Shown: positions 28,416-54,839 of the stretch, piece by piece
Numbering within the stretch: position 1 is the stretch's first letter
How the letters are laid out: every line of letters begins with the position of its first letter
From: a virus
Taxonomy: Duplodnaviria > Caudoviricetes
Direction: 5' to 3' (one strand)
Length of the DNA: 64,000 nt
IMG/VR virus record: IMGVR_UViG_3300027205_000173
Span: 1-64,000 of that record
Notes under the pieces: generated by a model
Databases searched by the model: none
What the model was told of the DNA's origin: nothing
The model's input: the letters and a program-made list of their open reading frames with translations, nothing else
Translations under genes and position numbers: made by a program

Positions 28416-28768
28416 AACTCCGATATGTATTTTTTGAGGAAATCATCAGATTTCGTTAACTCTAATAAGTCTAGCCTATCTTCGGGAGGATAATTAATTA
28501 GTCCGCTTGTGATGAGTTCAAAATATGGCTTATCGTCTTCTCGTACCCAGTTCTTTTTTCCTGGGAGTGACATGATTGCAGCGATTTCTTGTGCTTTGTT
28601 TTTGCGGCTGGTTTCGTGGGGGTCGACTCCTGTTTGGAGTTTCCTGGCCCTACTGATGTGCTCGTCAATAGATAAATCTGAATTATTTACCGAGACTAAA
28701 GTCATTCCCCAAAGTTGTTTGATTTTTTGGTTCCACTCTTCTTGACTAATCATATTATTTTGCCTCAC
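28412..28768 (-). CDS. Hypothetical protein
   Basis: 118-aa ORF overlapping both neighbours in the operon. Confidence 0.6.
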   Translation of the reverse strand: MRQNNMISQEEWNQKIKQLWGMTLVSVNNSDLSIDEHISRARKLQTGVDPHETSRKNKAQEIAAIMSLPGKKNWVREDDKPYFELITSGLINYPPEDRLDLLELTKSDDFLKKYISEL

Positions 28769-34500: not shown

Positions 34501-37500
34501 GTTTCAACCAACGAGCAGATTGAAGATCAACTTCGCCATCATTGACCATACGCAAATATTCATTAATTTCGCCATCGCCAAAACCATTAGTTTTTAATAA
34601 TTCTCGCCCATTATCGCCAATTAAAGAATTGATATCTAACTTTTCATTATTCATGTCAAGTTTATTTACTGGGTAACGTATCTCGGCAACGTCATCCAAA
34701 CTCACCCCACCAGCAACAAGTGCTTCGTACCTATTCCCTGGTCTGAGAGCACGTTCTGATCTACTTGCTGAAATATCGTCAGACAGAGAACCACTAAAGT
34801 TGTCATCAATAACATTTTGCAAGGCATTAGCAATATTGCGCATTCTGTCTGATTCCGAATTACCCGCAGTAATCGATTCATTAAGGTGTGCTAATCCAAC
34901 ATCGCCAGGTTCGTCAAACAAAACTGGTGTTGGATAGTTGTGTGAACGAATTGCTTCTCCGCGTGAATACGCAGAACGAGAAGCAACTTCTGGTTTTAAT
35001 ACTAAATCAATATCGTTCCCGCCAATTCGTACATCACCCATTGGCTGGATATCTCCACTTTCGTGAAAGAAATCAGGGTTTCTGCTAATCCCATCGCTTG
35101 GAATTGATTCAAGATGATCTGAAATAACATTTTTAGCATTACGGTGAACCATGTAACCATTGGATGATCGTAAATTATCAGAAACTGCCGCATCGTAACC
35201 TAAAAATAATTCATGTTCTGATTTGAGTTTGGAAATTGGACTATTCGGTTTAATTTCTTGAATTGTTTTTAAGCGACCGTCAGACATTAAGTTATTCAAT
35301 GTATTTTCATTCATCGGAATACGTATACGATCATCAAAACCTTTATGAAAATTAGAATAAGAATCATCAATCATTTTAAGAACTGATTCAGGAGATTGGT
35401 TATTCAGTAATGTTTTGATTCGTGGATCAAGATTATTGATAAAGTCAAATTCGCTCTCGTTAGAAGGAGAGACGTCGCCATTTATAATATTTCGCATACG
35501 CCCCAATGACGCAGAAATACGATTATTTCTTTGCTCTACATGAACTTCACGTGGAACAACTTTTCCCCATTGCGTAGAAAGTTGTGTTCCATCTGGATTC
35601 CTATAACGAGCGGAGTAATTATTATCAACATTAAATGGCACGCTATTCTGTCTGCGCATAATGCTAGAAATGGAATCGTTTTGTTCCCTCTGGTTTTTTT
35701 GAGTCAAGGGATCATTGCTGCTACCACGAGAACGTGAACGCATTCCTCGGCCACGCTCAGTATTTGCATAATTATCAATCTGCCTACTAATCTCAGATTT
35801 AATAATTGACGCCTCATTCTTGATGGACTCATCAACACCATCAGCAGATGAAACATTATCTATGTTGCCGTCCATGCGCTTAAGTGTTTCCAGGGGTGTT
35901 TCCTGTTTGTGAATTGTTGCCTCAATAATGCCATTTTCATCTACGCCAGTTATAACGAAATCACCTGGGGGCAAAAGAACCCCATCACTATCACCACTGA
36001 ATGAATCACCAACAACAGTTCCACGACTTCCCGCAGGAACACTCAGACGCACAACTCTGGTATTTTCGGGCATAGTTGGCTGAGCACCTTCCAAAGTCCC
36101 TTCACCTATTAGAATTCCTCGTGTTGGGGTTGGCTTTGTAACTATTTCACCACCATCAATCTCATAATCTTTTGGTAATGGGTAGGCAATCATGACCGAC
36201 ATATCTTCATCAAATTCATGAGAATCAATATGAAATAATAGTGGTGCTAAGGAATCCCTAATTTCTTCATCAAGCAAAGGAGATTGAGTGTCTGGGGTCG
36301 GTGCCCCAATTGTTTCTGCATTTTCTTTTGCCTTATTGCGTGCGTTGGCAGAAGTGGCAAGAACATTGCCTGTTTGTTGTTCGGCTAATGCTCTTGTCGA
36401 TGATCGCATATCCGGTGGCGTCGAGCCATCCAATAAAGCAACGGTTTCTGGTTCCGTTGTATCTAATATTTCTTGTCTTCTCTGACGTCCCCACTCCTTG
36501 GGATTGGACGCAGGGGTGATCGGAGTAGGTGTTGTTTCAATTGGCTCTTTGGGAACATTTACTCGTTCTATTGGTCCATCAAATTTTTCTTCAAAATCAA
36601 TTTTGGCTTTGACTTCTTCTGGGGTTCTATCGTAGCGTTCTGCAAGTTCATCAATTGTGTAGTCTGTATTAGTGTAATCGTCAATTAAAGCATCCGTTAA
36701 TTTTACTTCTGAATAATCGTTTGCAAACGGGTCCACTTGTCCATCCCATGCCGGAATGTCACGTTTTTTCTTAGGTTCTGGAAGTGATTCATCGGGAATG
36801 GAAGTTCCTTTTTCACTTGGTTCATTTCCAGTAGCAGATGCCGGCTTTGCATATTTTTCACGATATTTATCTAAACTTGGCTTATATTTTCTTGATTTTT
36901 TAAATTTTTCCCTGTCGTACTTGTCTCCCGGATCAAAGCCAGCGTCTTCTACGTCTTGTAAAAATTCTTGAGATTCTCCATAGTCCACTTTTGAAAGTTC
37001 TAATTTTGCTTGTCGCGTTTTTCCGTCATCATTTAGATCGGGTGACCAGTCGGCATAAATACCATTTGCAGGATCAAATTTGGGAATGCCATTTTCTCTT
37101 TCGGGGGACAACCAATCCGTAGGGGTGTCATCTGCCCCTGTATTGCCAATCATCTTATTGACATCATCCAAAGTAAACTTAGGATTTTCAGGATCACCAG
37201 CATTTAACTCATTCAATATTTGTTCAGGAGTATAATTTTCCTTTTTCATTTTCTTGACAAATTTAGTAACTTCGGGGGGGTATTCGGGTTTTCTTCGTAA
37301 ATCTCTTTTATCTGAAAAAATACTTTTCGGAACAAGTCTGGAAATATTTTCCGTAGGGGCATCATAAATAGGACGCGAAGCCAATTCAATACCGGGAGGC
37401 CTTCTCACCTCATCCATACCACCAATAGCCTTGTCGATATCTGGCCCAGAAATAACGCCCATCTGCCTCAACGCATACAACTCAGCACGAGCCTCCTGAA

Positions 37501-41718: not shown

Positions 41719-44700
41719 TTATTCATTGAGTGGAATCTTTACAGTGCGACCGGACTCGTTGGTTTTTTCTACAAATCGAGAATTAACCGGTTTTGCTGTT
41801 TTTCTGATAAATGTTGTCATGCCCGCTTCGGCTAGTTTGTCAAGCATTTGGGCAAACATATTAGTTCTGGAACCATCCGTCTGGGTCTGACGATCAACGA
41901 CGTGCATCAAGGCATCCATTACATCGTCCAGTTCACTCTGAGTAAGATACAAAGCACCAGCGTTGGTTCTCTTTCCACCAACATCGCCAGACTTCTGCCT
42001 ATCCATAATCTTTGTCAAATTTCTTAAAGAATTGGCAGTTTTGGAATCTCCAGACCTTTGTGCCTCAGAAATTTCCCTGCTCAATGATTGCTCTACCTTA
42101 TTGAACTCAGTTGCTTCCCAGCGAATTTCAGCGCGACCATCTTGTTCCGTTCCAGAACGTGAACGCATTCCTGCTTTTGGCTGCCGTTCGGCATTCTTGC
42201 GAGAACCTATGTAGCCATTGACTAGGCTCGAACGGGAACGTAGACCTTCTCCAGTCATAAATCTTGGAGTCGGATTGTCATCTTCCTCGCCACCGAGAGA
42301 AACGCCCGCTTGTTCACGAGAAGTATTTCCTCGCTTGATAAAAGGATCAGAATCTATATCATCATACAATTCTTCAAGGGTGTTCTTGAGTTTTGTGGCA
42401 TTATTGACACTCTTGCGTTCTGCTGGGCTCATTTCCTCCCCATCAAAACCAATAGTGTAATCATCAAGTGCTTCAATGATCGAACTCAATTTAGAAAGAG
42501 TCAAGTCAGTATCGTCGCCACCATCCTCAGCCTGAACCAAGTCCATCACTTCGTCCCATAGACGACCATGCTCATCTTCAGCATCGCCATCAATAATCGC
42601 ACCACTAATACTGTCCTGCGCCTTTGCAACGACTTTCTCAATAGTCGACATTTGCTTTTGGCGAACCTTTTTTGCTAACGCTGCTCGATTCTCTGGAGTT
42701 GTCTCGGCATCATCTGCCCGACGAGGTGAGTCTTGTTCCATAACTTCTGGACGACGTGTCACTGGGCCGGCTTCAGCCGAACGCTTCATTCTCTCGGCAA
42801 GTGCTTCCCGACGAGCAGTAATTCTGTCCTGCTGATCTTCAGCATCACGCAAACGCCTAAATGCAGCATTATATTCGCCGACCTGGATGCCGTTCGGATT
42901 AGTTGACTCGTCGTACTTGCCTGCAGAAATTAACGCATCAAACTTTTCATCTAGTGACAAAGTTTCGTAGTTTTCTGGAAGAGCATCCTTGGCCGTTCGT
43001 GGACCCTTGCCCTTTCCTGGACGAGAAGTAGACACGGCGCTGCCAGTTTGTGAACGCATACCAGAACCGACTCGTGACCTAACTCCACCACTACGGTTCT
43101 CTTCAGAGAATCGGTCAAACATATTGCGCAAAGTACTCCACTGACGCGCTGTCATGGTGCCGTTATTCTTCTTGTGAGCCTCAACGAGACCCTTAACTAT
43201 GCGGAAGTTGGGCTGACGACGACCCCAGTCAACAAGTTGACCCTGCATTCTTGGAGTAATATCTGCTGGAGCGCCATTATTGATGCGCTTACCATCGAAT
43301 TCCTCACCAGGCATATCAACATTGGGGCTGGTGTATTTTCCTTCTTTGCTGACTGAGGCCATTTCTAGTGGATCAGCACCAAACATCTTGATCCATGATG
43401 GATCAACTTTCTCTAATTCATCGTACGCCGTCATGACGTTGTCGTATTCTGAAGAAAGAATTGTCAAAGAACGACCAGGATTAGATTTTTTCTGATTCTG
43501 TAATTCCTCAAGAAGATTATCGTACTTCTTCATACCGTAAGTAATCATGCCGTTTCCGCCATGCTTCGCAGTAATTCCACGAATTTCATCACGAATTAAG
43601 CCAATTTCATCTACGGAAAGATTGACTTCCATTTTTTGATGTCTTGCTCCCGCTCGTGAACGGAAACCACCACCACCACGGGCTATATTAAGTTTTTTAT
43701 TGATTTTTTCTGCTGCTTCTGACAAGAAATTAGATGCTGCATACTCATCATTGCCCCACATGTCATTGGCGAGGTTGCTAATATTCGTAACTTGAGACTG
43801 AACTCGCTCAAGGTCACTGTCTTCGGTAATCCCGTTACGAAGCAATTCAATGGCATTGCCGTATACGGACTTTTCGTCTTCACTCATTGGAATCCGACGC
43901 AAATCACGTTCTAGGAAATCAACCGTCGTTGACTCAACACCATTAACATCACCATTTGGCTTGACGGAGTATGTCGCATTACGCTTCACATCATTGAGTG
44001 CTTTACCGAGACTCTCTGCTTCTTCAATGCTGTCTGCGTCATCAGCAGAAATACCACCAAATACGTAAGCCCCACCACCCTTATATTGGACGACCAACTC
44101 TTCTTTAGCGGCATCGTAACGAACGAAGTCAACAGCACTACTTTCGGCCATTCTGCGTGAAGGATAGATTTCGCGTGATTCGCCCAACCCTGTTCCGGCT
44201 TTGCTTCGCATGCCGTCAGCAATTTCTTGCACATCATCTGGATCGTCCGGATCGTCCGGCGGTCGCTTCGCTGCGGCTGCGAATCGTCTAGGCTCAATAT
44301 CCCTATCTTTGTTACGTCTAATAATTTCGCCAGGTTTGAATTTTTCACCGACTTCAAGTCCTTCTTCGCGATTAGAACGTGAACGCAAGCCCGCCTTTTT
44401 CATCCGCTCTTCATGCTTAATTAAATATTTTCTTGCTGCTTGTCTTCTTTGACGTGAAGCGGGTTTGCGCGCATCGGAACTGGGTTGATTTGCTATAGCA
44501 CCAAATCGTCTTTGAATATTTTTATCTGCAGCCTTACGTACTTCAAGATTCTCGTCTTCAAGTAAGTCTTTGATTGTTTCCAAATATGCCATATCATTAT
44601 TTGCAACATTTAGTCTAGTTTGAACATCCTCGCGACGTGAAAGTTCATCAAGATAATTGGGCGACATTAGATTCAGCCTGGAATCATGCGCAGCATCTCT

Positions 44701-47700
44701 TCGGTCTGCTTCTACATTTGCTGACGTTCCACCAGAGCGTGAACGCAATCCTTCTAGGGGACGTCTGCCCGGCTTTCCAGCAGCACGGACACGGTCAAGG
44801 CTGCGGAATTGCTCATCCTCGTAGAATACGTCGTCATTTCCCTGGTCTTCAATGTTTTGCAGGAAGTCCATGGCGTCTTCAACGGAATCAAACTCTTCAT
44901 CATCCGCTCCGCCATAGAAATACTCCACGCCATCTTCTGTACGGAACATACCAACAACTCCGTATCCGGGAGTGTCGTCGCCATAAATATCAGCCAGAGG
45001 GATAACTTCTGCGTCTACATTTTCGCCGTTAAGTCGATCAATCCACTTTGATCCCGTGTTGTATTTTGATTCGGCAACACCTTCACGCACCCCACCCGAA
45101 CCACCTTCGTCATCGTAAGAACGACGTGAACGCATGCCGGAAGTTGGCTTTGAATTAGTTCCAGGTTTACGCGATTTATTTTCTTTTCTGCGTCGATCAA
45201 TTTCTTGTTTTGCCGCAAAATAGGAATCCCTGATCTTCTTCTTTTCAAGCGGGTCATCGACACTGACTTTTCCGTCCGTAACATCGAACCAATCATTCAT
45301 TAAATTCTTTAGTTCTTCATCTGTGGCGTCTTCCATATTGGTTGATCCAGAATTTGTTTGTGAACGCATGCCTTCTAGTGGACGTCTGCCAGGCTTTCCA
45401 GCAGCACGAACACGGTCAAGACTACGGAATTCCGGATCACCATACAAAATTCCCTCATTACCCTGGTCATCAACATTTTGCAAGAAGTCCATAGCATCTT
45501 CAACAGAATCGAACTCTTCATCGTCCCCGCCATAGAAATACTCAATCCCACCGAATCCATCGTCAGTTCTATAAACGCCGACCACGCCATATCCAGGCCT
45601 GTCGTCACCATAAATATCCGCTAATGGAATAACATCGGCATCAACATTGTCGCCCTTGAGTTGATCAATCCACATGAAGCCTTCAAAATGTTCAGACTCT
45701 GCGACTCCTTCGCGAACACCACGCGAACCACTTTCGTCATCGTAAGAACGACGTGAACGCATTCCTTGCTGGCGTCCACCACGAGAACCAGACGGTCTGC
45801 TCACGTTCGGGAATGTGTCATTCGTACCAAAGGTGCGTGTTTCGGTAGTTCCATCAGACATGTTCTCCAACACCATTGTGACGTAGCCATCTTCTTGGCC
45901 ATCACTACGGATATCGGCAATACGAACCATCGGCTCGCCAACAGCACTAGTTTCATCATCCCAATTTTCGGGAAGAACATCACCAGGTGCTAAATCTATA
46001 ATGTTTGCTCGCGCTTCAACACCACGTTCTCTGTCGCCCAATTTGGGCCCTTTTCGATTAGGACGATTCTTGTACGAGGGCGCAGATTCCCAAGCACGAT
46101 CATCCATCAAGAATCCATTATTAGACAAGATGTCTGATGCTCTTTTATCTTTTGATATTGCGTTTACTAAAGCATCAAGTTTGTCGTCCATGTTGGCTTT
46201 GGCATTATCTCGCAAGGAAATATCTGAACCGACCGATCCTTCGCGATCCGCCCGATAGAAATCAATTTTCACTCCATTATCCAAGAGGTGATTTCGTAAA
46301 TATTTTTCGTTAGAAGACAAGTTCTTATCATCTTTGGAGAAAATTTCGCTTATATAGCCAATTGCGGCACCAGCAGAATTCCCAAAATCTTCACGTGAAC
46401 GGAAACCCCACTCATTTGTGGATGGTCCATCTTTTTTCTTGCCCGGAATTTTCTTCGAGCGAAGTTTTTGTTCTTGCATGATACGAACTTGATCTGGTGT
46501 CAATTTCGTGTTCATTTTACGTTTTTCGGAATTGTTCTTTTTTCCAGAACGTGAGCGCATTCCCCCATTTTTCAATCTGTCAAGTGCTTCTGTGACTTTT
46601 TCGTCAGCAAAATCAGACGACAAATCATCAATTTTTTCAGTTATTAAATAGTCAGGATCAATATCATCAAATTCAGAACCTTCAAAATTATCACGAAGAT
46701 TTGAGACAAACGATATGGCGTCCACGCTGTCCCAATGCTCGTCGTCAAAGAATGCCGGGTCAATCAAGTCTGTAATTAGTGCATCATATTCTTCTTGATT
46801 AATATCGCCATCATCCAGCATTTTCTTATAAGCAACACGGGCTTTCGTTGTGCCAGTTCTACCGACTAATCTCTGGGTGTCTTCACTAACTGCGTATTTT
46901 GCCCAATCAGTAATGCCTTTAATCTCATCATTGACACTATCTAATTCATTTTCAATCTCATCAAAAAGGTCATTTTCTTCATCGTTAAAATCTCGCCCAT
47001 TGGCATAATACTGATCCATTAATTCTTTTGATTTTGCATCAAGTTCATTACGACGTTGTGTGAGTTCTTCCAACTTATTGACTATTCCTTCGGAATTCTT
47101 TGATAAGTAGGCATCTCGCGTATTCTTAAAATTCTCATGCGAACCACTTCGTGAACGCATACCCGAAGAAGATGCTCCCATTAAAGTGTTGATTTCATCT
47201 TCCGTGAAACCAAGTTCCGACATCGTTAAACGACGTTTGTCATTTTGTTCTGCTAAGAATTTTTCTGAATCAAACTTAACTTTTCCTTTTTCGTCACGTT
47301 CAATCATTTCACGACGTGGACGACCAGTGGCATCCAACTCTGGTGCCTTTCTGGTTGCCGACTCAGCGCCTTGCTCTTTGCGTAGGTCAGAAAACTCTTG
47401 ACGTAATGGTGCTTGACGGCGACGGAATTCCGCTAAATCAATTTTCTCATCATCAAGTTCTTTTTCAAGATCACGTTGCTTTTTGATATTGGTATCAATT
47501 TCGGCATCAATATTGCGCCCTGTACGGGAACGTAAGCCCATTGTGCGTTGCTTGTCGCTATCTTTAACAATGTTGTCATACACTTCATTGGCGCGTCTCA
47601 AGATGCTTTCTTTACCTTGAGGAATTCTGCCAGAAGAAACAAAATCTTGGAATTCATCAACAGTTAGCCCATCGCTGAGTATATCCATCGACTCTAAAAA

Positions 47701-50700
47701 TGCGCGATTAGCAATAGATTCCATTTCTGATTCAAATATGCGCTCACCATCATCTGAAGGTCCAGATATTTGGTTTCGTGCATATCCCGCATAGCGACCG
47801 CTCAATACATCGGCAACATCATCTTTGGTAAATCCTTGACGCTTTAGTTCAGAACGAACAATCTTCATCAATTCGGGATTAATCCTCTGGTCACCATCAA
47901 AAATATCTTGCAGTTCTTTATCGCTCAAACCAAATTTCTGGCCGCTACGCTGCGACATTTGGGCAAGAATGTCAAATGCTCGCTGTTCTTTTGTTACTTT
48001 AGGCTCAACGCTGTTATTGCGTTCATTTCTTAAACCATCAGTGATTTTTGAACGGAAACCACGAAGCAGTTCCGGTACGTCGCGAGGACCGTCATAAGAC
48101 CCAAAGCGAAGAGGCTTTGGTTTAAAGTTATCCCAGTCAAGATTTTCTACTGACCAGCCCGTTTGCTGAACAGCACGCTCTTCTACTGGCTTGACATTGC
48201 CTTTTTCTAGATCGTGGGCGTAGGCTTTTCTTTGCGCTTTTCTGTATTGGCGCAATTTCTTTTTGTATTCCTGATCCCACTCTTCGAAAGTAGGGTACCA
48301 ATCCCAAGTATCGTAAGGTTTATTGCTGTCGACATCACGTTTTGCTTGATTGCGGAAAGAATCAAGCATTTCTTGTTTGCGTTGTGCTTTAGATTTTGGC
48401 TTGAAAGTCTCTAGAAGTCTTCTTTCAGCAGGTGTCAGAGTTTCTAGGGCACCATCTGATGGCTTGTAGTCGTCAGGGACGGTTGCTTTCCAGGTTTTGC
48501 TTTCGCTACGACGACGATCTTCTAGTTGGGAGTCAATGACATCTTGTGTTCCTTTTTCTTCTTCTCCCGATGACATGCCGCCATTGGGCAATGTTGATGG
48601 CTCTTGTCCGCGCTTGCGTGCATAAACGCTCTTATCTCCGGCGGAATAATCACCGAAATATTCAGGCTCACGTCCCTCGCTTTGATATACGTCGTAACCA
48701 CGTGAATCAAGTTCTTGAACCAAAGAACTCAATGATGGGCGATCTCTCAAAAGGAGGGAAGAAGATTGTGGATTCCTGTCCCATGGACGCCATGCCGTTT
48801 CTCCATACGATTGAAGAAGTTTAATAAGTTCCTCGTCACTCATATTTTGGAGTGCTTGAACTGGACCTCTTCTTCCGTACGCTGGTTTCAATTTTTTGTC
48901 TGGCTTGCTATCTTCCCTGAATCTACGCGAACGCATGCCACGATCTCTTCTGTTGCGATCAAAAATATTGTCTACAGCATCATCAAGGAGTTCGCGACCC
49001 TTTTCTCTAGCAAATTTCTTAGCCTCTCTCTTGAGGTCTTTGCCAATTTCGCGACCTTGCTTACGTACCGCGTCGCCAAGACGCGAACGCATTCCAACAT
49101 CATCGCGCTGTCGTTCGCCAACATTTTCCCAATGTGTTTGCACGTCAGAATTCCACATTTCTTCGGCACGACTCATTACTTTTTCATTGTCAAGAATGTT
49201 TGACCAATCAACGTCCTTCGGGTCAAGTTCGTCATCTTCGATCATTATTTCGACAGTACGTTCAAGTAAATTCTCGAAATGATCAGAATCTTGATCTAGG
49301 TCCTCGAATTGCTCGTTGTAAGTTGGGCCACGTCGCGAACGCATGCCACGATCTTTGTCGCGTAAAACAAATCCGTCTCTACCCCAAGAACCCTCATGAG
49401 ACATGATCGCATCGGAGACAGCACTTGCTACAAAACGCTTTTTATCTTCAGGTGATGCTTTACTGACATCTATTGACCATGACCAGCCACCGTCAGAGTC
49501 ACCTTCGGTTTCGATGTAATCAACGAGACCACTATCCTGAAGGAAGGAACCTGCAGGACCATCTGCTACATCAACTTCTGTATCAACAAAATCCATCCAG
49601 AGTCTTGATTCCGATGCATCACCCATACCATCGTTGAAGACCCTGACATCCAAGCCTTCTCTAATAACATCATTGTTACTATAGGCGTTATCGATAAGTT
49701 TATTGACTTCAGAAATATTATCCTTAGAAACAAACTCATCTAGTGAACGACCATCAAATATTTCGGGGGCATACTTCTCAATTAAAGGAGTAATTCTGTC
49801 TAGATAATCCTGAGTTGATTCGTCATCACCCTGGAATAGGTCTCTTGGGTCGACACCATCATCTTCAAGAACTTTACGAGCGCGATCTGCTGCTACTTGA
49901 TCCGAATATATTTTTCTCTGAGAAGTTGAGCGCATTCCACGTTCTTCGCGTTCCATATCACGTTGCATGTCTGCTTGCTCGTCAAGCATGTACTGGATGT
50001 ACTCGGGGTCATTTTCTGCTTCGCGTTGACGCTTCAGGCGATTCTCTTCACGCAGTTCTCGCATCGACTTCTGGGGCTTCTTGCGCGGTGCGTTGAGGCG
50101 ATTTTCACGGAACTGGCGGTCATCTTGTTCGTCAAGTTGATAATCGATTTCCGGATCACCCGAGCGTGAACGGAAACCGCGAACCCAGCCACGATCTTCC
50201 TCTTGGGCATTCTCTAAATCACTTTCAGCAGCCTTCTGGATATCGTCATCGAAGGCATCGGAATTATTGTATTCTTTAAACAATTTTTCCATTGCGGCAA
50301 TAGGGTCGTCTGATTCATTGACGTCATCCAGAAGGGAATCCCACTCGTCGTCAGTCATGTCCTTGTATTTGTCTACATTTTCTCTAGTCCAATCGCGAGC
50401 AGTCTCGTAATATCTATCCGAGTCCATCCTGCTCCACTCTTCGCCAACGTTTTCCATAATTGGTTCTAAGGGATCGTCATCTGGCTCATACCATGAATCA
50501 GGAGGACCAACATAGCCACGTGAACGCATGCCACGATCTTCGCGTTCCATATTGCGCTGATCGTCAGCCCACTCATCGAGCATTGCTTCGGTGTCATATT
50601 CTGCGGCATCGCGTTGACGCTTTAAACGATTCTCTTCGCGAAGTTCACGCATCGACTTCTGAGGCTTCTTGCGTGGTGCGTCAAGACGATTTTCACGGAA

Positions 50701-52695
50701 CTGACGGTCATCCTGTTCATCAAGTTCTGCATCAATATCCGAGTCGCCCGAGCGCGAACGCATTCCCTGCTGGCGTCCCTTGCTAGGTTTTGTTTCTCTT
50801 AAATTGGGGAATGGTGGAAAGGGGCGAGTTCTTTTTTCAAATTCTTCATCAGTTTCATCAAACTTCTTACGAGGTTTGCCGGTTCCTAGATCGAATGGCA
50901 GGTCAGAACCAATAGGTTGCATTTCGCCACGTGAGCGCATGCCACCATCATTAGTGCCTGATAAACTCTGTAAGAGATTAGGGTTACCACCGATATCGTC
51001 GATGATTGAACGTAGTTTCTTTTCATCAAAAGAAACATTGCCATTACCTGAGCGACGTTGCTTTTCAATTGCTTCGGCATCTCCCTCGACGACTGCCGAA
51101 AGTTTTCTGGCAAGGTTCTTGGGTACGATAAAGCGAGGAATAATTGGTCGTTCCAAGCCTGGCTTGCCTTCAAAAACAATGCCGTCAGAGTCGGCGTCAG
51201 TAACGCCAGTAATGTCAACGAATGCCATGCCTGCAGGAGCCGCACGCAAGCCGCCCCCTAGTTTCGGACCAATTTTGCCACTAAGGGCTTTTATTCTGGT
51301 CTTGGGGGCGTCTTTGGTGTTAGGCGCCCCATCACCTTTTTTTGAACCACCGCCACCATCTAGGTAGGAGGAGATATTTTTGTGGGCTGATCTGAGTGCC
51401 TGTAGTGAATCTTCGTTGATCCCGCTAGTGATATGGACTCCGTAGTCGTCAACGTGTGCTTCTAGGCGATGGTAATTGAGTACGGGGTCTAGTAGTGACT
51501 TGACCTCGTATGCATATTGTGGCTTGCACCATACCGAATATTCCAAGGCAGTTTTTTTCTGCTGTCCACCAGCAAGATTGCGCAAATAGTCGATGGCATC
51601 TTGGATTTTCTGCAATTCGCTTTCCTTGATTGTTTCATCTTCTCCGGCGTTAGAAAGAACTTCGACTGCCTGATCAAGTTGATCATCAAATGATTTCATC
51701 ATCGAAACTGGCTGCTGGGAATCACCATAGGACTGGGTTACATATCCTGGCTTAACCATCATCGGCATCGAAGGCATTTGCGATGGAACAATCTGTTGTG
51801 AAGCCATCTTCTCTGGCTTGCCGAACATGTATCTGCCGCTTTGTGACTCGCGATGGTACCCAATTCGATAAGTCATGCGGGTTCCGTCTGGCATTGTGCG
51901 ATCAAAAACAACGCTGTTTTCGGTTGCGTTCACTACTTTGAGTGGGCTTGCTGATCGTGAAGATAATTCCATTTCAAGTGCGGCACGAGCCTCGCCGCCA
52001 AGTTGGCCAGATTCTCCTGAAGCAAAAATGTCTGTTCGTTCGTTTGCTGCTGGGAATGTTTGCGGTTTTGCTGGGGAGAGGTTAAAGCGAGGGATGTCGA
52101 TAGCCGTCGAACCAGGTCGACTTTGACGCATTCCGCCCTGCATTCCTTCTGGACCACATTTTTCGCCATTTTCGTCGCTTTTGACGGAAAGTGTGGCAGT
52201 GAGTTGGTTTGCTCCGTGGAGAACAGGGCTGACTTCGTATAATTCAACTTCACGCAGGACGTTGGCTTGCATTGTGGGATCAAACGTTGCTTGAAGTGTC
52301 TTGTAGCCGATTGACCATTCTTGTTCTTGTCCAAAGAATGCCACGCTGCCAAATCCTTCGCGTCCCTTTTCCGTTGCAAGGTTGAATTGGACGCGAGCGT
52401 ATAGTCCACCGACCCCGGCCATCTTCATCTTCATGGGGATACGTGGGTCGTTTGCTGGTACTTCGTAGATTTCTAGAACTTTACCGATAGGGTCATTCCA
52501 GTTGTGTCCCCAGACCACGCGTGGCTTACGACGCTTGAGGCTTTCCGTAAATGCACCGCTGATGATCACATCGCCTACCGAATCCTTATTACCGATGGCG
52601 GCTACAAAACATTCAACGATTCCTTGCGCTGAGTCAATATTAATTTGACCATCAAGCGCTTTGAAAAGTATGTCTGACGTCGAGAAATTGGACAT
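41719..52695 (-). CDS. 3658-aa polyprotein: N-terminal HK97-family (S78) prohead protease followed by ~24 GMRS-delimited modules, including KTSC
   Basis: DSVGDVIISGAF, VWGH (catalytic His), WSIGY (catalytic Ser), LYEVSPVLHGAN; the domain ends at SVK|S near 52180. AAGGAG SD; directly downstream of the portal gene. Confidence 0.92.
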   Translation of the reverse strand: MSNFSTSDILFKALDGQINIDSAQGIVECFVAAIGNKDSVGDVIISGAFTESLKRRKPRVVWGHNWNDPIGKVLEIYEVPANDPRIPMKMKMAGVGGLYARVQFNLATEKGREGFGSVAFFGQEQEWSIGYKTLQATFDPTMQANVLREVELYEVSPVLHGANQLTATLSVKSDENGEKCGPEGMQGGMRQSRPGSTAIDIPRFNLSPAKPQTFPAANERTDIFASGESGQLGGEARAALEMELSSRSASPLKVVNATENSVVFDRTMPDGTRMTYRIGYHRESQSGRYMFGKPEKMASQQIVPSQMPSMPMMVKPGYVTQSYGDSQQPVSMMKSFDDQLDQAVEVLSNAGEDETIKESELQKIQDAIDYLRNLAGGQQKKTALEYSVWCKPQYAYEVKSLLDPVLNYHRLEAHVDDYGVHITSGINEDSLQALRSAHKNISSYLDGGGGSKKGDGAPNTKDAPKTRIKALSGKIGPKLGGGLRAAPAGMAFVDITGVTDADSDGIVFEGKPGLERPIIPRFIVPKNLARKLSAVVEGDAEAIEKQRRSGNGNVSFDEKKLRSIIDDIGGNPNLLQSLSGTNDGGMRSRGEMQPIGSDLPFDLGTGKPRKKFDETDEEFEKRTRPFPPFPNLRETKPSKGRQQGMRSRSGDSDIDAELDEQDDRQFRENRLDAPRKKPQKSMRELREENRLKRQRDAAEYDTEAMLDEWADDQRNMEREDRGMRSRGYVGPPDSWYEPDDDPLEPIMENVGEEWSRMDSDRYYETARDWTRENVDKYKDMTDDEWDSLLDDVNESDDPIAAMEKLFKEYNNSDAFDDDIQKAAESDLENAQEEDRGWVRGFRSRSGDPEIDYQLDEQDDRQFRENRLNAPRKKPQKSMRELREENRLKRQREAENDPEYIQYMLDEQADMQRDMEREERGMRSTSQRKIYSDQVAADRARKVLEDDGVDPRDLFQGDDESTQDYLDRITPLIEKYAPEIFDGRSLDEFVSKDNISEVNKLIDNAYSNNDVIREGLDVRVFNDGMGDASESRLWMDFVDTEVDVADGPAGSFLQDSGLVDYIETEGDSDGGWSWSIDVSKASPEDKKRFVASAVSDAIMSHEGSWGRDGFVLRDKDRGMRSRRGPTYNEQFEDLDQDSDHFENLLERTVEIMIEDDELDPKDVDWSNILDNEKVMSRAEEMWNSDVQTHWENVGERQRDDVGMRSRLGDAVRKQGREIGKDLKREAKKFAREKGRELLDDAVDNIFDRNRRDRGMRSRRFREDSKPDKKLKPAYGRRGPVQALQNMSDEELIKLLQSYGETAWRPWDRNPQSSSLLLRDRPSLSSLVQELDSRGYDVYQSEGREPEYFGDYSAGDKSVYARKRGQEPSTLPNGGMSSGEEEKGTQDVIDSQLEDRRRSESKTWKATVPDDYKPSDGALETLTPAERRLLETFKPKSKAQRKQEMLDSFRNQAKRDVDSNKPYDTWDWYPTFEEWDQEYKKKLRQYRKAQRKAYAHDLEKGNVKPVEERAVQQTGWSVENLDWDNFKPKPLRFGSYDGPRDVPELLRGFRSKITDGLRNERNNSVEPKVTKEQRAFDILAQMSQRSGQKFGLSDKELQDIFDGDQRINPELMKIVRSELKRQGFTKDDVADVLSGRYAGYARNQISGPSDDGERIFESEMESIANRAFLESMDILSDGLTVDEFQDFVSSGRIPQGKESILRRANEVYDNIVKDSDKQRTMGLRSRTGRNIDAEIDTNIKKQRDLEKELDDEKIDLAEFRRRQAPLRQEFSDLRKEQGAESATRKAPELDATGRPRREMIERDEKGKVKFDSEKFLAEQNDKRRLTMSELGFTEDEINTLMGASSSGMRSRSGSHENFKNTRDAYLSKNSEGIVNKLEELTQRRNELDAKSKELMDQYYANGRDFNDEENDLFDEIENELDSVNDEIKGITDWAKYAVSEDTQRLVGRTGTTKARVAYKKMLDDGDINQEEYDALITDLIDPAFFDDEHWDSVDAISFVSNLRDNFEGSEFDDIDPDYLITEKIDDLSSDFADEKVTEALDRLKNGGMRSRSGKKNNSEKRKMNTKLTPDQVRIMQEQKLRSKKIPGKKKDGPSTNEWGFRSREDFGNSAGAAIGYISEIFSKDDKNLSSNEKYLRNHLLDNGVKIDFYRADREGSVGSDISLRDNAKANMDDKLDALVNAISKDKRASDILSNNGFLMDDRAWESAPSYKNRPNRKGPKLGDRERGVEARANIIDLAPGDVLPENWDDETSAVGEPMVRIADIRSDGQEDGYVTMVLENMSDGTTETRTFGTNDTFPNVSRPSGSRGGRQQGMRSRRSYDDESGSRGVREGVAESEHFEGFMWIDQLKGDNVDADVIPLADIYGDDRPGYGVVGVYRTDDGFGGIEYFYGGDDEEFDSVEDAMDFLQNVDDQGNEGILYGDPEFRSLDRVRAAGKPGRRPLEGMRSQTNSGSTNMEDATDEELKNLMNDWFDVTDGKVSVDDPLEKKKIRDSYFAAKQEIDRRRKENKSRKPGTNSKPTSGMRSRRSYDDEGGSGGVREGVAESKYNTGSKWIDRLNGENVDAEVIPLADIYGDDTPGYGVVGMFRTEDGVEYFYGGADDEEFDSVEDAMDFLQNIEDQGNDDVFYEDEQFRSLDRVRAAGKPGRRPLEGLRSRSGGTSANVEADRRDAAHDSRLNLMSPNYLDELSRREDVQTRLNVANNDMAYLETIKDLLEDENLEVRKAADKNIQRRFGAIANQPSSDARKPASRQRRQAARKYLIKHEERMKKAGLRSRSNREEGLEVGEKFKPGEIIRRNKDRDIEPRRFAAAAKRPPDDPDDPDDVQEIADGMRSKAGTGLGESREIYPSRRMAESSAVDFVRYDAAKEELVVQYKGGGAYVFGGISADDADSIEEAESLGKALNDVKRNATYSVKPNGDVNGVESTTVDFLERDLRRIPMSEDEKSVYGNAIELLRNGITEDSDLERVQSQVTNISNLANDMWGNDEYAASNFLSEAAEKINKKLNIARGGGGFRSRAGARHQKMEVNLSVDEIGLIRDEIRGITAKHGGNGMITYGMKKYDNLLEELQNQKKSNPGRSLTILSSEYDNVMTAYDELEKVDPSWIKMFGADPLEMASVSKEGKYTSPNVDMPGEEFDGKRINNGAPADITPRMQGQLVDWGRRQPNFRIVKGLVEAHKKNNGTMTARQWSTLRNMFDRFSEENRSGGVRSRVGSGMRSQTGSAVSTSRPGKGKGPRTAKDALPENYETLSLDEKFDALISAGKYDESTNPNGIQVGEYNAAFRRLRDAEDQQDRITARREALAERMKRSAEAGPVTRRPEVMEQDSPRRADDAETTPENRAALAKKVRQKQMSTIEKVVAKAQDSISGAIIDGDAEDEHGRLWDEVMDLVQAEDGGDDTDLTLSKLSSIIEALDDYTIGFDGEEMSPAERKSVNNATKLKNTLEELYDDIDSDPFIKRGNTSREQAGVSLGGEEDDNPTPRFMTGEGLRSRSSLVNGYIGSRKNAERQPKAGMRSRSGTEQDGRAEIRWEATEFNKVEQSLSREISEAQRSGDSKTANSLRNLTKIMDRQKSGDVGGKRTNAGALYLTQSELDDVMDALMHVVDRQTQTDGSRTNMFAQMLDKLAEAGMTTFIRKTAKPVNSRFVEKTNESGRTVKIPLNE
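44740..45765 (-). repeat. Duplicated ~130-aa module (45361-45765 and 44740-45137), each copy bounded by GMRS/GLRS
   Basis: RRSYDDE.G..GVREGVAES...VIPLADIYGDD.PGYGVVG...FRSLDRVRAAGKPGRRPLEG(M/L)RS occurs twice. Confidence 0.9.
49928..50766 (-). repeat. Duplicated ~80-aa module (50523-50766 and 49928-50178), each copy bounded by GMRS/GFRS
   Basis: RSGD..ID..LDEQDDRQFRENRL.APRKKPQKSMRELREENRLKRQR...MERE.RGMRS occurs twice. Confidence 0.9.
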
Positions 52696-52814: not shown

Positions 52815-54839
52815 CTATGGTCTGCAATAGTCCCAAGAGCGACGTGCTTCTGCCGAGGCAACCTCTGGGCGAATCTTCACCAACAAATCGGTATAGATGC
52901 TGACAATGGATGTCTTTAGGGCACTGAGTCGTTCCTCGTCGTTCTTAATTCCAAACGAATTAAAGATAGCCATATCCAAAAGTGTCCGAGTATCGTCGTT
53001 TATAGACTTAATTCTAGTCATCTGAGCATCAAGATGTGCATGGATATCCGATGCTGACGGTCCAGAATAATTTGCTGACTTTTCTGCATATATGGACTTT
53101 GAGTCCTTGACGATAGCCGAAAGTACAGGACGGATATCCTCATCCATTTGCTTGGTCCACGTATCATTATTCAAAATGCTTTCAGAATCAAGAGAACCAG
53201 AACTCAAGAATTCCCTAGACTTCTTGCCGCCAACCTTCTCTAGGACAACACGCTGTTGACGTTCGAGTACTCGTTCTAGGCTTCGATCTAAGATTTCTTC
53301 CCAGCGCACAACAGCAATGTCTCGTTCCGCGCTGTCATCTTTGTAGGCCAATGGTTGCCTATCGGACATTTGGGCCATCGCCCCTTCGGGCCCTGCGGGA
53401 ATTCCCCCACCAGGCATACCCATTCCAGGAAAACCTCCAGGAGCGTCATTCGGTGCACCAGGGACTCCGCCCTGTTCTGCCATGAGTGCTCCAGCCATCG
53501 TATCTGGGGCTGGAGCGCCACCAGCGGCATCAGGAGGCATTCCAGCAGGCATTCCAGGAGGACCGCCACCCATAGGAACCCCGCCCTGACCAGGAGGAGG
53601 AGTGGGCTTGGTTGTATTTGCGATTGGGGTCAAGTTGGGGTTCATGAGAAGGCTATCCGCCAACTCCGATTCAACCTTCTTACGACCAGTTCCTTCACGA
53701 TATTCGTTGACGCTAATAAGTCCGCGACTTTGCTCATCCAGAAGGTATCTTTCACGCTCCTGCTTGGTAATAATCAGGTATGGAACGTCGGAAGTATCAA
53801 AGTCAATATAATGTTCAGCATCGAGGTCGTCAAGTGCTCGTGCCAAAATCTCCAAGTGAGGAGACATAGTCTCATTCCAGAAAACGCTCACTTCCTCGGC
53901 AGCGTTGCTGAATGTTCTGCCAGAAGCATTACCGATGACTGACTCAGGAACGCCAAACGAAGCAAGGATTTCTTCCTTGGTGATCTGACGCATTTGAATA
54001 TAGGCAGCATCTCGCGGATTTGACGAAGTATCAACATAATCAACGCCATCATCAGCCGAAATAACAGTAGTTGACCCAACGCGACCCAAGTTGCCCCTAA
54101 AACGGTTCCTTAACTCATCTTTGTCATCTTCATCGATTTCCCCACGAAGAACCAACAAACCACCAGGACGACCATCATTAAGTAGGTAGTTGCGGTTATA
54201 GAGTTTCGCTAAGTTCTCAATTTCAATAGCAACGCCAGCGGACTCCATGGGAGTTAGTGACAAGTAAGGGTCTAGTGGATGTGGTCGACGAACCCAAATA
54301 ACATCATCGGGATTCATGATGATCTTGGTGCCAGTTGGCATTAAGACTTCATACCCAGAAACGAACTTAACAGGGTCGGGGATAGGTGCAGTTGATTGAG
54401 GAGGAAGGAGATTTAGCCCAATAATTGAGCCATCACGACCACGAACCTTCTCAATAAAAGCGCCACGAGTTCCAAGAAGAATCTGAGATGAGAGACGGTA
54501 TCTAAAAATATACGCATTTTCACCAATATTGGATTTTGTGTTCAAAATTGTCAATAATGATGATTTATCAGCAGTATCCCCACGAACAATACGGCCAATT
54601 GGCGAATTTTCTTTACGAAGGATGACAGGGAGGCGAGCCTGATTACCTGCGATGGCATCAATACAGCGTGCCACCCAGGTGACTTTCTGCATTCCCTCGC
54701 GATAAGCGCGCTCAATGTCCCAGGGGTCACGATAGGCGCGTCCAACAAAACTTGGGTTTGCTGAAACGGGTGCGCCAGGACCAATGAGCGACTTCCCGCC
54801 CTGGCCATTTAATGATTTATTAGAAATATTCCAAGCCAT
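52815..54839 (-). CDS. HK97-type portal protein with a P/G/M-rich linker and C-terminal MuF-like extension
   Basis: WVARCIDAIA, GAFIEK...LNLLPP, PLDPYLSLTPM, NDGRPGGLL, EILASFGVP...TFSNA, GLISVNEYR. Confidence 0.92.
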   Translation of the reverse strand: MAWNISNKSLNGQGGKSLIGPGAPVSANPSFVGRAYRDPWDIERAYREGMQKVTWVARCIDAIAGNQARLPVILRKENSPIGRIVRGDTADKSSLLTILNTKSNIGENAYIFRYRLSSQILLGTRGAFIEKVRGRDGSIIGLNLLPPQSTAPIPDPVKFVSGYEVLMPTGTKIIMNPDDVIWVRRPHPLDPYLSLTPMESAGVAIEIENLAKLYNRNYLLNDGRPGGLLVLRGEIDEDDKDELRNRFRGNLGRVGSTTVISADDGVDYVDTSSNPRDAAYIQMRQITKEEILASFGVPESVIGNASGRTFSNAAEEVSVFWNETMSPHLEILARALDDLDAEHYIDFDTSDVPYLIITKQERERYLLDEQSRGLISVNEYREGTGRKKVESELADSLLMNPNLTPIANTTKPTPPPGQGGVPMGGGPPGMPAGMPPDAAGGAPAPDTMAGALMAEQGGVPGAPNDAPGGFPGMGMPGGGIPAGPEGAMAQMSDRQPLAYKDDSAERDIAVVRWEEILDRSLERVLERQQRVVLEKVGGKKSREFLSSGSLDSESILNNDTWTKQMDEDIRPVLSAIVKDSKSIYAEKSANYSGPSASDIHAHLDAQMTRIKSINDDTRTLLDMAIFNSFGIKNDEERLSALKTSIVSIYTDLLVKIRPEVASAEARRSWDYCRP

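Follow-up and report, generated by a model that had tools for sequence, protein, structure and literature searches.

A protease-headed phage polyprotein whose modules vary as whole cassettes bounded by a G-M-R-S linker

We analysed a 64,000-nucleotide stretch of Caudoviricetes phage DNA (the window; positions 1 to 64,000 of IMG/VR record IMGVR_UViG_3300027205_000173), in which a gene headed by a capsid-type protease encodes a protein of 3658 aa. A short motif, G-[MLFVI]-R-S, is strongly enriched in this protein, and internal duplications have their edges at it. Orthologues differ from the protein by whole modules between motifs, DNA crossovers lie at or beside the motif codons, and modules have been transferred between giant proteins in the same units. 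Taken together, it is probable that the gene encodes a cargo polyprotein with a capsid protease at its head, which evolves in units of one module and its linker and in which the linker is cut by the S78 protease. The layout of the gene is given below.

41719..52695, minus strand: P0001, protease-headed polyprotein gene, 3658 aa (open reading frame list and translation)
50944..52695, minus strand: module 0, aa 1-584, the S78 protease plus about 400 more residues, up to the first motif (aa 585)
52186..52626, minus strand: Peptidase_S78 (HK97-type prohead serine protease), aa 24-170; PF04586, 40.3 bits, cut-off 21
50938..51276, minus strand: shared pre-cargo domain, aa 474-586, with a second occurrence in the 2543-aa giant, aa 226-336 (24743-25075)
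41722..43668, minus strand: C-terminal modules, aa 3010-3658
Gly codons of motif sites 1-8, first listed base: 50941, 50764, 50530, 50176, 49936, 49345, 49093, 48937
Gly codons of motif sites 9-16, first listed base: 48058, 47536, 47161, 46561, 46405, 45763, 45370, 45136
Gly codons of motif sites 17-24, first listed base: 44749, 44389, 44212, 43666, 43084, 43060, 42244, 42169

The motif occurs 24 times in the protein, compared to 0.48 copies expected from shuffles. The forms seen at these sites are G-[MLFV]-R-S, and the sites split the protein into ∼24-25 modules. Pfam recognises only the S78 and KTSC domains in it, and most modules match no known domain. The S78 domain aligns with HK97 gp4 (E 8e-11); His64 and Ser128, both invariant in 110 related polyproteins, line up with the His and Ser in the HK97 protease motifs, the catalytic residues of that enzyme. 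In the same 110 polyproteins ∼110 positions of the first 172 residues are ≥90% identical. In keeping with S78 membership, the gene shares a head module with genes for the portal and for a capsid protein of HK97 fold. When the protease domain was searched against PDB sequences, nothing matched. In distant homologues of all linker classes the alignment is limited to the first ∼290-620 residues of the 3658-aa query (8-17%). The pre-cargo domain is 73% identical between the 3658-aa protein and the 2543-aa giant (E 3e-46), forms the N-terminus of P0080 and occupies aa 211-332 in P0036-type giants; it may serve in capsid targeting or as an anchor. The order and length of the C-terminal modules are constant across all orthologues (module strings), and the C-terminal 330 aa are 34% identical to the giant P0080. 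ESM Atlas look-ups with module 13 and with aa 175-584 gave no usable match. An AlphaFold2 single-sequence model of aa 2097-2830 was set aside (mean pLDDT 42); five of its six linkers lay in coil and the sixth, at the end, in helix, an observation given no weight.

Among 50,697 phage records, megablast found nothing that matched the gene, and our searches turned up no cultured phage built in this way. Gordonia GMA6 and Brevibacterium Cantare, the closest cultured relatives (portal and protease ∼40%), encode proteases of the ordinary kind and lack the motif pattern. At least 100 protease-headed giants were found, and the capsid protein has 438 relatives in IMG/VR. We found no paper that describes a motif-bounded cassette polyprotein.

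The sequence-only reading of this DNA had claimed that modules are gained, duplicated and shuffled as cassettes, and had asked for a comparison of orthologues. We compared nine close orthologues (P0002-P0010), which come from metagenomes and are 78-97% identical to the window protein. Module strings showed that whole motif-bounded modules vary in presence, order and copy number between them and the window protein. In motif-blind global alignments, where a clean indel was one of 25 aa or more with flanks ≥60% identical, 42 of the 42 distinct clean indels were in register with the motifs, both ends lying at a near-equal small offset from a motif. A few of the 42 sit 1-8 aa off the motif, and one indel alone lies further away (-19/-19), where the 13-14-13 repeat has slipped by a period of 207 aa; a random position falls within 5 aa of a motif 8% of the time. 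For HSP end points between orthologues the enrichment near motifs was only three-fold, since gapped BLAST runs across cassettes, and the gap analysis was used instead. The comparison thus came out in favour of the claim. An exception is the module family at aa 1253-1545 (module 7), which shows internal mosaicism with breakpoints away from the motif.

The claim had been based on two duplications inside the protein, of ∼80-aa and ∼130-aa units, each with an unrelated module between the copies (A-x-A'). Their parts lie as follows.

50521..50766, minus strand: duplication 1, copy A, aa 644-725
50179..50532, minus strand: module between the copies of duplication 1, aa 722-839, motif-bounded and unrelated to the copies
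49927..50178, minus strand: duplication 1, copy A', aa 840-923, the copy common to all orthologues
45361..45765, minus strand: duplication 2, copy A, aa 2311-2445, of the 'module 13' family
45139..45372, minus strand: module between the copies of duplication 2, aa 2442-2519, motif-bounded and unrelated to the copies
44740..45138, minus strand: duplication 2, copy A', aa 2520-2652

We measured the duplications by tiled BLAST of the 3658-aa protein and then by alignments with 60-aa flanks. Both are real, with 74% and ∼70% protein identity, their coordinates had been given correctly to within one codon, and the A-x-A' layout is as described. The copies of duplication 1 are 74% identical in protein (E 6e-35) and 78% in DNA; those of duplication 2 align by BLAST in two parts, at 70% (E 2e-42) and 61% (E 2e-24) identity, and are 77% identical in DNA. 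In the flanked alignments identity runs from the Gly of one motif to the Arg-Ser of the next. The similarity had been said to extend 'exactly' from motif to motif; it does start and stop at motifs, but the agreement is exact only to a few residues, and in the second pair the BLAST HSPs run 14 and 25 residues past the motif at low identity. DNA flanks of 60 nt showed 45-53% identity, which we presume to be background for this aligner. Synonymous codon differences outnumber non-synonymous ones in both pairs (25 versus 14 in duplication 1, 44 versus 27 in duplication 2), indicating that the duplications are old and that both copies are still under purifying selection. In a tree of copies, copy A' of duplication 1 clusters with the single copies of P0003, P0004, P0006 and P0009, and copy A' of duplication 2 with the second copies of P0003, P0004 and P0005. 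The aa 722-839 module is also found without the duplication, in P0006 and P0008.

At the DNA level, where comparisons were based on four orthologous genes, six three-way comparisons of junctions each showed the switch from left to right homology at the motif codons or next to them. Five independent events had their best-fit crossovers within about 10 nt of the Gly codon (-10 to +14 nt), and some joints share only 2-8 nt of microhomology. The linker-coding core is ∼15 nt long (GGN-ATG-CGT-TCA-CGT). Linker Arg is encoded by CGT at 39 of 51 sites, compared to 40% gene-wide (p 2e-7), and linker Ser by TCA at 31 of 51, compared to 25% (p 7e-8), while the Gly codon shows no bias. The linker codons are more uniform than the peptide demands. 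This uniformity could have been inherited with the cassettes and not be a cause of recombination.

The motif is not confined to the 3658-aa protein. The following genes of the head module are needed here.

52815..54839, minus strand: portal protein (PF04860, E 5e-45), without the motif, directly upstream of the 3658-aa gene
31535..39523, minus strand: 2662-aa giant with 5 motifs, an RNase_T domain and a conserved HExxH at aa 559
18119..25750, minus strand: 2543-aa giant with 17 motifs, including four tandem double sites, and two KTSC domains
10873..17718, minus strand: 2281-aa polyvalent protein with 5 motifs and DUF3721, Zeta toxin, pentapeptide repeats, ArdC-N and MPTase-PolyVal
9229..10536, minus strand: HK97-type major capsid protein (phrog_10, E 3e-65), 41% identical to HK97 gp5
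10243-10251: candidate capsid maturation site Phe96-Lys97|Ser98, proposed from its resemblance to the HK97 site

Between the portal and capsid genes lie 42 kb of giant genes, and the four giants together hold 51 copies of the motif. The portal, the capsid protein and the 709-, 926-, 674- and 1003-aa proteins have none, and the ORFs of 200 aa or more in the rest of the 125-kb genome have 3 singletons. Modules that are 75-93% identical to those of the window occur in orthologues of the 2543-aa giant from distant phages, although the ends of these orthologues are only 33-39% identical. The edges of the transferred modules lie 0-6 aa from motifs on both sides. For example, the aa 722-839 module is 75-79% identical to one in the giants P0041, P0042, P0054 and P0055. 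The claim that modules move as cassettes is supported by the orthologue indels, the DNA joints and the transfer between giants, with the aa 1253-1545 mosaic as the part that is not motif-bounded. As for the proposed functional boundary, the evidence is good that the motif marks an evolutionary boundary, and its role as a cleavage site is something that we infer.

Other clades carry other linkers at homologous positions (G-L-A-S, G-F-A-S, G-F-S-S and L-S-S-G), each clade having one over-represented linker of its own. The same cargo family terminates in G-[M/L]-R-S here and in G-L-A-S and G-F-S-S elsewhere, and G-L-A-S, G-F-S-S and L-S-S-G polyproteins contain the module 13 family too, bordered by their own linker. 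On the S78 tree the linker class is strongly clustered, with 8 changes compared to 57 after shuffling; as labels are shared among relatives, co-evolution does not follow from it.

These observations would fit a protein made of an N-terminal unit (S78 plus ∼400 residues) followed by ∼24 separate modules joined by G-[M/L/F]-R-S-(R), which related phages gain, lose, duplicate, reorder and exchange whole, with the joints in or beside the ∼15-nt linker core. Because all linkers share one reading frame, a linker-to-linker crossover gives an in-frame chain of intact modules, and both A-x-A' duplications are probably products of unequal recombination of this kind. Inside the procapsid the linker would be cut, most probably by S78 itself at hydrophobic-Arg|Ser, so that each module may travel in the virion as a separate cargo protein and be delivered together with the DNA. 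Recombination between short homologies at the linker codons, acting beyond selection, would make the in-register joints, and it would also keep the linkers of one genome alike (concerted evolution). We put forward tentatively, as a possibility that falls short of an even chance, that the linker thus has two roles, the peptide being the cutting site that frees the modules and the ∼15-nt DNA core supplying the homology for recombination. This would be an in-frame, integron-like cassette system for injected proteins, in which cassettes pass between giants and between phages and the linkers of one genome evolve in concert. Concerted linker evolution would explain the block switches among G-M-R-S, G-L-A-S, G-F-S-S and L-S-S-G under a near-constant protease.

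The G-M-R-S linker is most likely a proteolytic processing site, judging from the protein sequences. Between the candidate cutters we favour the S78 protease, with a conserved HExxH protein as its putative rival. A cut between Arg and Ser by S78 is proposed because of its likeness to the HK97 Lys|Ser cut. The S78 domain is near-invariant across clades with Arg, Ala or Ser at linker position 3, and only Ala136/Ser was found as a residue that might track Arg versus Ala there, which was unconvincing. As no S78 residue tracks this position, the protease either ignores it or is not the cutter. The HExxH segments of the 2662-aa protein (aa 559) and the 926-aa protein (aa 508) are both kept in relatives without MPTase, and they are conserved in the 2662-aa and 926-aa orthologues of genomes G001 and G005. 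The giants of G003 and G006 have one HExxH segment each, and their match to the 2662-aa protein lies only outside that region. No Pfam family matched the 2662-aa HExxH region at E 0.01 or below, and the 926-aa protein had no PHROG match. In six-frame Pfam searches, two complete relatives without MPTase-PolyVal had S78-headed polyproteins with 12 and 11 G-[MLF]-R-S sites. MPTase as a universal cutter is thus ruled out, for PF18818 only, since it is missing from complete relatives that keep the punctuation.

The capsid protein was inspected for related sites. HK97 gp5 undergoes its maturation cut at Lys103|Ser104 (PMC10275583), and a family-wide K-S-[ILV]-G segment of the capsid proteins, Phe-Lys-Ser-Ile-Gly in the window, resembles Lys103|Ser104-Leu-Gly. 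The candidate cut implies an N-arm much longer than that of HK97, and the likeness of the sites is one of resemblance only. In the capsid delta region W-N-R-S occurs only in the window's lineage and Q-L-S-S only in L-S-S-G loci. Other G-x-R-S loci have G-L-R-E, so the match to the linker is partial, and with kinship uncontrolled there is only a hint that this region may carry the linker of its lineage.

The same cassettes could be cut by another enzyme, a zinc metalloprotease of the head module acting before the hydrophobic residue (Gly|Met/Leu/Phe), for which the N-terminal HExxH of the 2662-aa protein, the HExxH of the 926-aa protein and the MPTase-PolyVal of the 2281-aa protein are candidates. 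Many zincins typically have a hydrophobic P1' residue. A hydrophobic residue at position 2, with Ser at position 4, is common to all linker classes and would suit such enzymes, the HExxH segments persist in relatives while S78 stays constant across linker classes, and MPTase has been proposed as a processing enzyme of polyvalent proteins in the passages covered of Iyer et al. 2017 (PMC5512222). Against this, complete relatives without MPTase-PolyVal retain G-[MLF]-R-S, protease activity of the other HExxH regions is conjecture as they match neither Pfam nor PHROG, and the Arg|Ser reading has a parallel in the known HK97 site; we regard a metalloprotease cutter as rather unlikely. It would be more improbable still that nothing cuts the motif and that it serves as a hinge or conserved spacer, or as a basic element that binds DNA or the capsid, in giants that are packaged intact and threaded through the tail. 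This is about the least likely of the readings considered. The linker and its neighbours are indeed basic and rich in Gly, Ser and Arg, and other very large virion proteins, such as the N4 virion RNA polymerase, are said to be packaged whole (PMC5512222, passages covered). A spacer, however, needs no four to five fixed residues, and the motif is limited to head-module giants, one of them headed by the genome's protease. Moreover, clades have switched coherently to another peptide at homologous positions, as would be expected of an enzyme recognition site.

A different question is whether recombination at the linker is needed at all. Breakpoints could be illegitimate and fall anywhere, with only whole-module products with intact linkers surviving selection and the uniform linker DNA being a by-product of common descent. 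In line with this, purifying selection on both copies of each duplication means that intact modules matter, the mosaicism of module 7 shows that non-linker breakpoints happen, and microhomology at some joints is short. But selection alone would allow joints across the variable 10-20 residues on each side of the linker, while the five best-fit crossovers lie close to the Gly codon. In addition, linker Arg and Ser codons are far more uniform than gene-wide, with six codons possible for each. We consider selection alone an unlikely explanation, and recombination at the linker codons, combined with S78 cutting, is the reading that we carry forward.

Several known systems resemble parts of this arrangement. 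Polyvalent proteins, in the passages of PMC5512222 covered, are giant, multi-domain proteins in a late or virion context; they are believed to enter with the DNA and to be cleaved into separate effectors, and they show extensive domain shuffling (Iyer, Burroughs, Anand, de Souza, Aravind 2017, PMC5512222). The neighbouring 2281-aa protein shares their hallmark ArdC-N and MPTase-PolyVal as well as Zeta toxin and pentapeptide repeats, and the giants here lie between the portal and capsid genes, a late or virion context that would imply delivery with DNA. An assemblin-like peptidase is rare in polyvalent proteins and always C-terminal according to those passages; in contrast, the S78 peptidase here is N-terminal and heads a large metagenomic family, with the MPTase on another protein. 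Effector or conflict domains occur in the 2281-aa and 2662-aa giants, whereas in the 3658-aa protein only S78 and KTSC are recognised; its cassette behaviour shows ∼24 separable modules. The same passages make no mention of a regular short linker, lineage-specific linker codes or recombination at linker codons.

In SPN3US and phiKZ-like phages, ejection proteins are head cargo that the head protease processes at a short recurring consensus motif (PMC5694885, PMC10052503). The T4 internal proteins and Alt, with the protease gp21, are a further likeness: they are packaged in the head too, and their short cleavage motif is found again in many head proteins. The T4 gp21-type protease cuts after Glu by the rule Leu/Ile-x-Glu, and an N-terminal targeting peptide is removed. 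The protease here is of the S78 and not the gp21 type, and the linker G-M-R-S follows no Glu rule. Moreover, the cargo of the T4, SPN3US and phiKZ-like systems is encoded by separate genes, unlike the chains of up to 24 modules found here, and we know of no description of cassette exchange at cleavage-site codons in them. HK97 shares the S78 protease, a capsid protein with 41% identity and a basic residue followed by Ser, as in the proposed Arg|Ser cut, but its gp4 has 225 aa and no cargo, and S78 action on such linkers is only proposed here. The herpesvirus assemblin precursor has a release and a maturational site, both Ala|Ser, that is, two sites and a scaffold. Assemblin resembles the present case: it is a protease fused to its substrate, Ser follows the cut, and the passages of PMC5512222 covered place it in one structural superfamily with the protease here. 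An Ala|Ser cut would suit the G-L-A-S and G-F-A-S clades. In place of two sites and a scaffold, however, there are dozens of sites and swappable cargo here. Nematode polyprotein allergens (PMC3079579) and RNA-virus polyproteins are also single products cut at repeated short sites; their units are copies of one protein or follow a fixed gene order, whereas here unrelated cassettes are swapped between genomes.

If the proposed reading is true, aquatic phages of a large and abundant family encode their cargo as in-frame cassettes that extend over tens of kilobases, and one short peptide together with its codons is processing site and exchange point at once. This would explain how the set of injected proteins can change rapidly without loss of frame. 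The set presumably includes anti-defence functions, as ArdC, pentapeptide, Zeta-toxin and exonuclease modules occur in the same system. It would also give a simple rule for dividing unannotated giant phage proteins into functional units and a natural design for the delivery of many proteins by a capsid. Two questions become testable: what it is that S78 proteases recognise, and whether 12-15 nt of shared sequence suffices for cassette exchange.

The sequence-only reading had described two independent duplications in the 3658-aa protein, each bounded by GxRS motifs and each with an unrelated motif-bounded module between its copies; both this description and its coordinates proved correct. Tiled self-BLAST returned exactly two internal duplications, with matches of aa 639-725 to 835-923 (74% identity) and of aa 2297-2467 to 2506-2678 (two pieces, 70% and 61% identity). 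In long-flank protein alignments of both, identity ran from the Gly of one motif through the Arg-Ser of the next, and the intervening modules (aa 722-839 and aa 2442-2519) were unrelated and motif-bounded. As DNA the copies were 78% and 77% identical, respectively; their 60-nt flanks were 45-53% identical, which we took as background for the aligner without a shuffled control. The protein holds 24 copies of this linker motif, G-[MLFVI]-R-S, against 0.48 expected. Synonymous differences outnumbered non-synonymous ones in both pairs, indicating that both copies of each are maintained. In trees of the copies, the second copy of the first duplication (aa 840-923) was the one common to all orthologues, and both copies of the second (aa 2311-2445 and 2520-2652) were older than the split of the window from two metagenomic orthologues, P0003 and P0004.

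Nine close orthologues of the 3658-aa protein (3078-3639 aa, 78-97% identity) came out of a protein search, along with >100 more distant protease-headed giants. We split the orthologues at each motif and grouped the fragments by clustering; the module strings so obtained differed by whole modules, as the sequence-only reading had expected of cassettes, and module length was nearly constant within a family.

Module strings of the window protein and three orthologues (module 13 is the family of the second duplication)
Window: 0-1-2-3-2-4-5-6-7 ... 12-13-14-13-15-16
P0002: ... 12-23-13-15-16
P0006: 0-1-28-2-5-3-6-7 ... 12-23-29-13-15-30
P0010: 0-2-3-2-4-32-8 ... 12-29-33-30

Because these strings themselves use the motif, we repeated the comparison blind to it, on global pairwise alignments, taking gaps of at least 25 aa with 25 flanking columns on each side at least 60% identical. 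All 42 distinct clean gaps (42/42) were in register with motifs, both ends being shifted from a motif by an equal or almost equal distance (differing by 1-8 aa in a few). The offset was usually 0-5 residues, where the chance for a random position to fall within 5 residues of a motif is 8%, and at most 11 with one exception (-19/-19): in the 13-14-13 repeat, where a gap can be placed arbitrarily, the alignment slipped by 207 aa.

We then compared three orthologous genes as DNA (L003, partial, L004 and L006), setting at six junctions the sequence lacking a cassette against the left and right cassette ends in the other genome. At most of the six, homology switched from left to right in or beside the linker codons, and clean switches had 8-14 nt common to all three sequences. 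A least-mismatch search over 240 nt placed the breakpoints of five independent events between -10 and +14 nt, counted from the Gly codon's first base. Linker codons were also more uniform than the peptide demands: Arg was CGT in 39/51 sites (40% gene-wide, p 2e-7), Ser was TCA in 31/51 (25% gene-wide, p 7e-8) and an Arg after the linker was CGT in 26/36 (p 1e-4), with no bias in the Gly codon. The 12-mer ATGCGTTCACGT occurs 11 times on the genome's coding strand and 0 times on the other. Tandem double linkers 6-8 residues apart are found in the 2543-aa protein (aa 531/537, 617/624, 1004/1011 and 1569/1576) and at 43060-43086; they may have been left behind by linker-to-linker recombination slightly out of register, and a tiny peptide would be freed if both sites were cut.

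All of the window belongs to one phage contig of 124,933 bp, of which it makes up the first 64 kb; a related contig stems from a marine metagenome. The head genes are arranged as follows.

Genes of the head region
52815-54839, minus strand: portal gene (PF04860)
41719-52695, minus strand: 3658-aa ORF, Peptidase_S78 N-terminal
39536-41665, minus strand: 709-aa ORF, directly after the polyprotein gene
31535-39523, minus strand: 2662-aa ORF, RNase_T domain
28755-31535, minus strand: 926-aa ORF
Between portal and capsid genes, minus strand: 674-aa ORF
18119-25750, minus strand: 2543-aa ORF, two KTSC domains
Minus strand: 2281-aa ORF (DUF3721, Zeta toxin, pentapeptide repeats, ArdC-N, MPTase-PolyVal)
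9229-10536, minus strand: major capsid protein

Cassettes also move between different giant proteins. Six metagenomic giants (P0036, P0041, P0042, P0054, P0055 and P0072) are orthologues of the 2543-aa protein, to which their N- and C-terminal parts are only 33-39% identical, and they hold modules 75-93% identical to aa 2311-2447, 2651-2771, 725-843 and 587-650 of the 3658-aa protein; the boundaries of the modules common to both proteins lie 0-6 residues from the linker in each. For protein as well as DNA, comparison among relatives thus gives strong support to the cassette interpretation, except that the aa 1253-1545 module departs from it: a 213-aa variant in P0008 has only a 30-residue stretch in common with the 71-74-aa module of P0007 and P0010, so there is some mosaicism below module level. 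No other module family varies in length internally, whereas this one (48058-48939) comes in forms of 293, 213 and ~72 aa; the module holds a degenerate, linker-like G-M-S-S and may represent two cassettes fused after linker decay.

Cargo modules of the 3658-aa protein are mostly strongly acidic (pI 4.1-5.0, with Asp and Glu together making up 23-31%); scattered among them are short modules that are very basic (pI 9.7-11.6), and KTSC (aa 2851-2906) is the only recognised domain in the cargo. The ~110-aa domain just before the first linker (aa 474-586, 50938-51276) recurs with 73% identity in the 2543-aa protein (aa 226-336, 24743-25075) and also stands at or near the start of P0080 and P0036-type giants; a possible role, common to cargo chains, is capsid targeting or anchoring. 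The 709-aa ORF (39536-41665) is Cys-rich at both ends, with several C-x-x-C pairs, and strongly acidic in the middle, where five E-E-M-Y-M-D-D-E-like repeats alternate with Gly/Pro/Arg-rich stretches; it lacks the linker and had no match in Pfam or PHROG. Downstream of the capsid gene, a 1003-aa ORF (5921-8932) without a family match carries a Y-D-E-Y-D-E-Y-type repeat.

From the portal to the capsid gene there are four giants, and all of them carry the motif, in 24, 17, 5 and 5 copies. The portal, the capsid protein and the other head-module proteins lack it, and it is almost missing elsewhere in the genome, a 2210-aa ORF included. Other clades of the protein family each have their own strongly over-represented tetrapeptide; a complete relative, G003, had no clear linker.

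Linkers of other clades
G-L-A-S, 8-15 copies
G-F-A-S, 20-25 copies
G-F-S-S
[R/K]-[L/F]-S-S-G, 10-18 copies
I-S-G-R-M-G, in one complete genome (G006, 137,811 bp; L092-L093), 13-14 copies in head-module giants

Protease-headed polyproteins of other clades contain members of the aa 2311-2445 family too, and in these the conserved tail ends in G-L-A-S or G-F-S-S, not in G-[M/L]-R-S. As the tails end in the linker of their clade, linkers of different clades occupy homologous positions, and the third residue of the linker is specific to the lineage.

Since a short, strictly kept peptide lies between separable modules in a protease-headed protein, the motif is best read as a proteolytic processing site; that it stays uncut seems quite improbable. 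Peptidase_S78 spans aa 24-170, with His64 and Ser128 aligned opposite the His and Ser motifs of HK97 gp4. This domain (52186-52626) is unusually conserved (~110 of the first 172 residues at least 90% identical in 110 related proteins), also across clades with completely different cargo and linker peptides.

We infer both the cleavage and its agent, and consider the S78 protease somewhat likely to be the cutter. It heads the chain, the Arg-Ser bond resembles the Lys103-Ser104 cut of HK97, whose gp5 is 41% identical to the window capsid protein, and that protein carries Phe-Lys-Ser-Ile-Gly inside a K-S-[ILV]-G segment conserved family-wide. Moreover, S78-headed polyproteins with 12 and 11 G-[MLF]-R-S sites are kept in two relatives with complete genomes, one of 156 kb and one of 137 kb with terminal repeats, neither of which has the MPTase-PolyVal domain. 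However, the S78 domain hardly changes from one linker class to another, no residue in it tracks the third linker position, and the residues common to all classes (a hydrophobic one and Ser two positions on) would fit a zincin equally well. A zinc protease cutting before the hydrophobic residue is a rather doubtful alternative, consistent with the recurrence in complete relatives of HExxH segments from the 2662-aa protein (aa 559, in its N-terminal part) and the 926-aa protein (aa 508): both segments are present in G001 and G005 and one each in G003 and G006. The HExxH region of the 2662-aa protein had no Pfam family match and that of the 926-aa protein no PHROG match, and both are possible undescribed metalloproteases of the head module.

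In T4, the head protease cleaves its cargo substrates at a consensus motif. The same holds for SPN3US (PMC5694885, PMC10052503). In both, the cargo comes from separate genes and the protease is of another family. Among described concepts, the polyvalent protein of Iyer et al. 2017 (PMC5512222) comes closest; in that paper an assemblin-like peptidase is rare and always C-terminal, and the passages searched report no regular linker. Our literature search found no account of polyproteins headed by a protease and punctuated by linkers, nor of recombination at the codons of such linkers. Recombination from linker to linker would lead to concerted evolution of the linkers, and through this a whole clade could switch its linker under a nearly unchanged protease.
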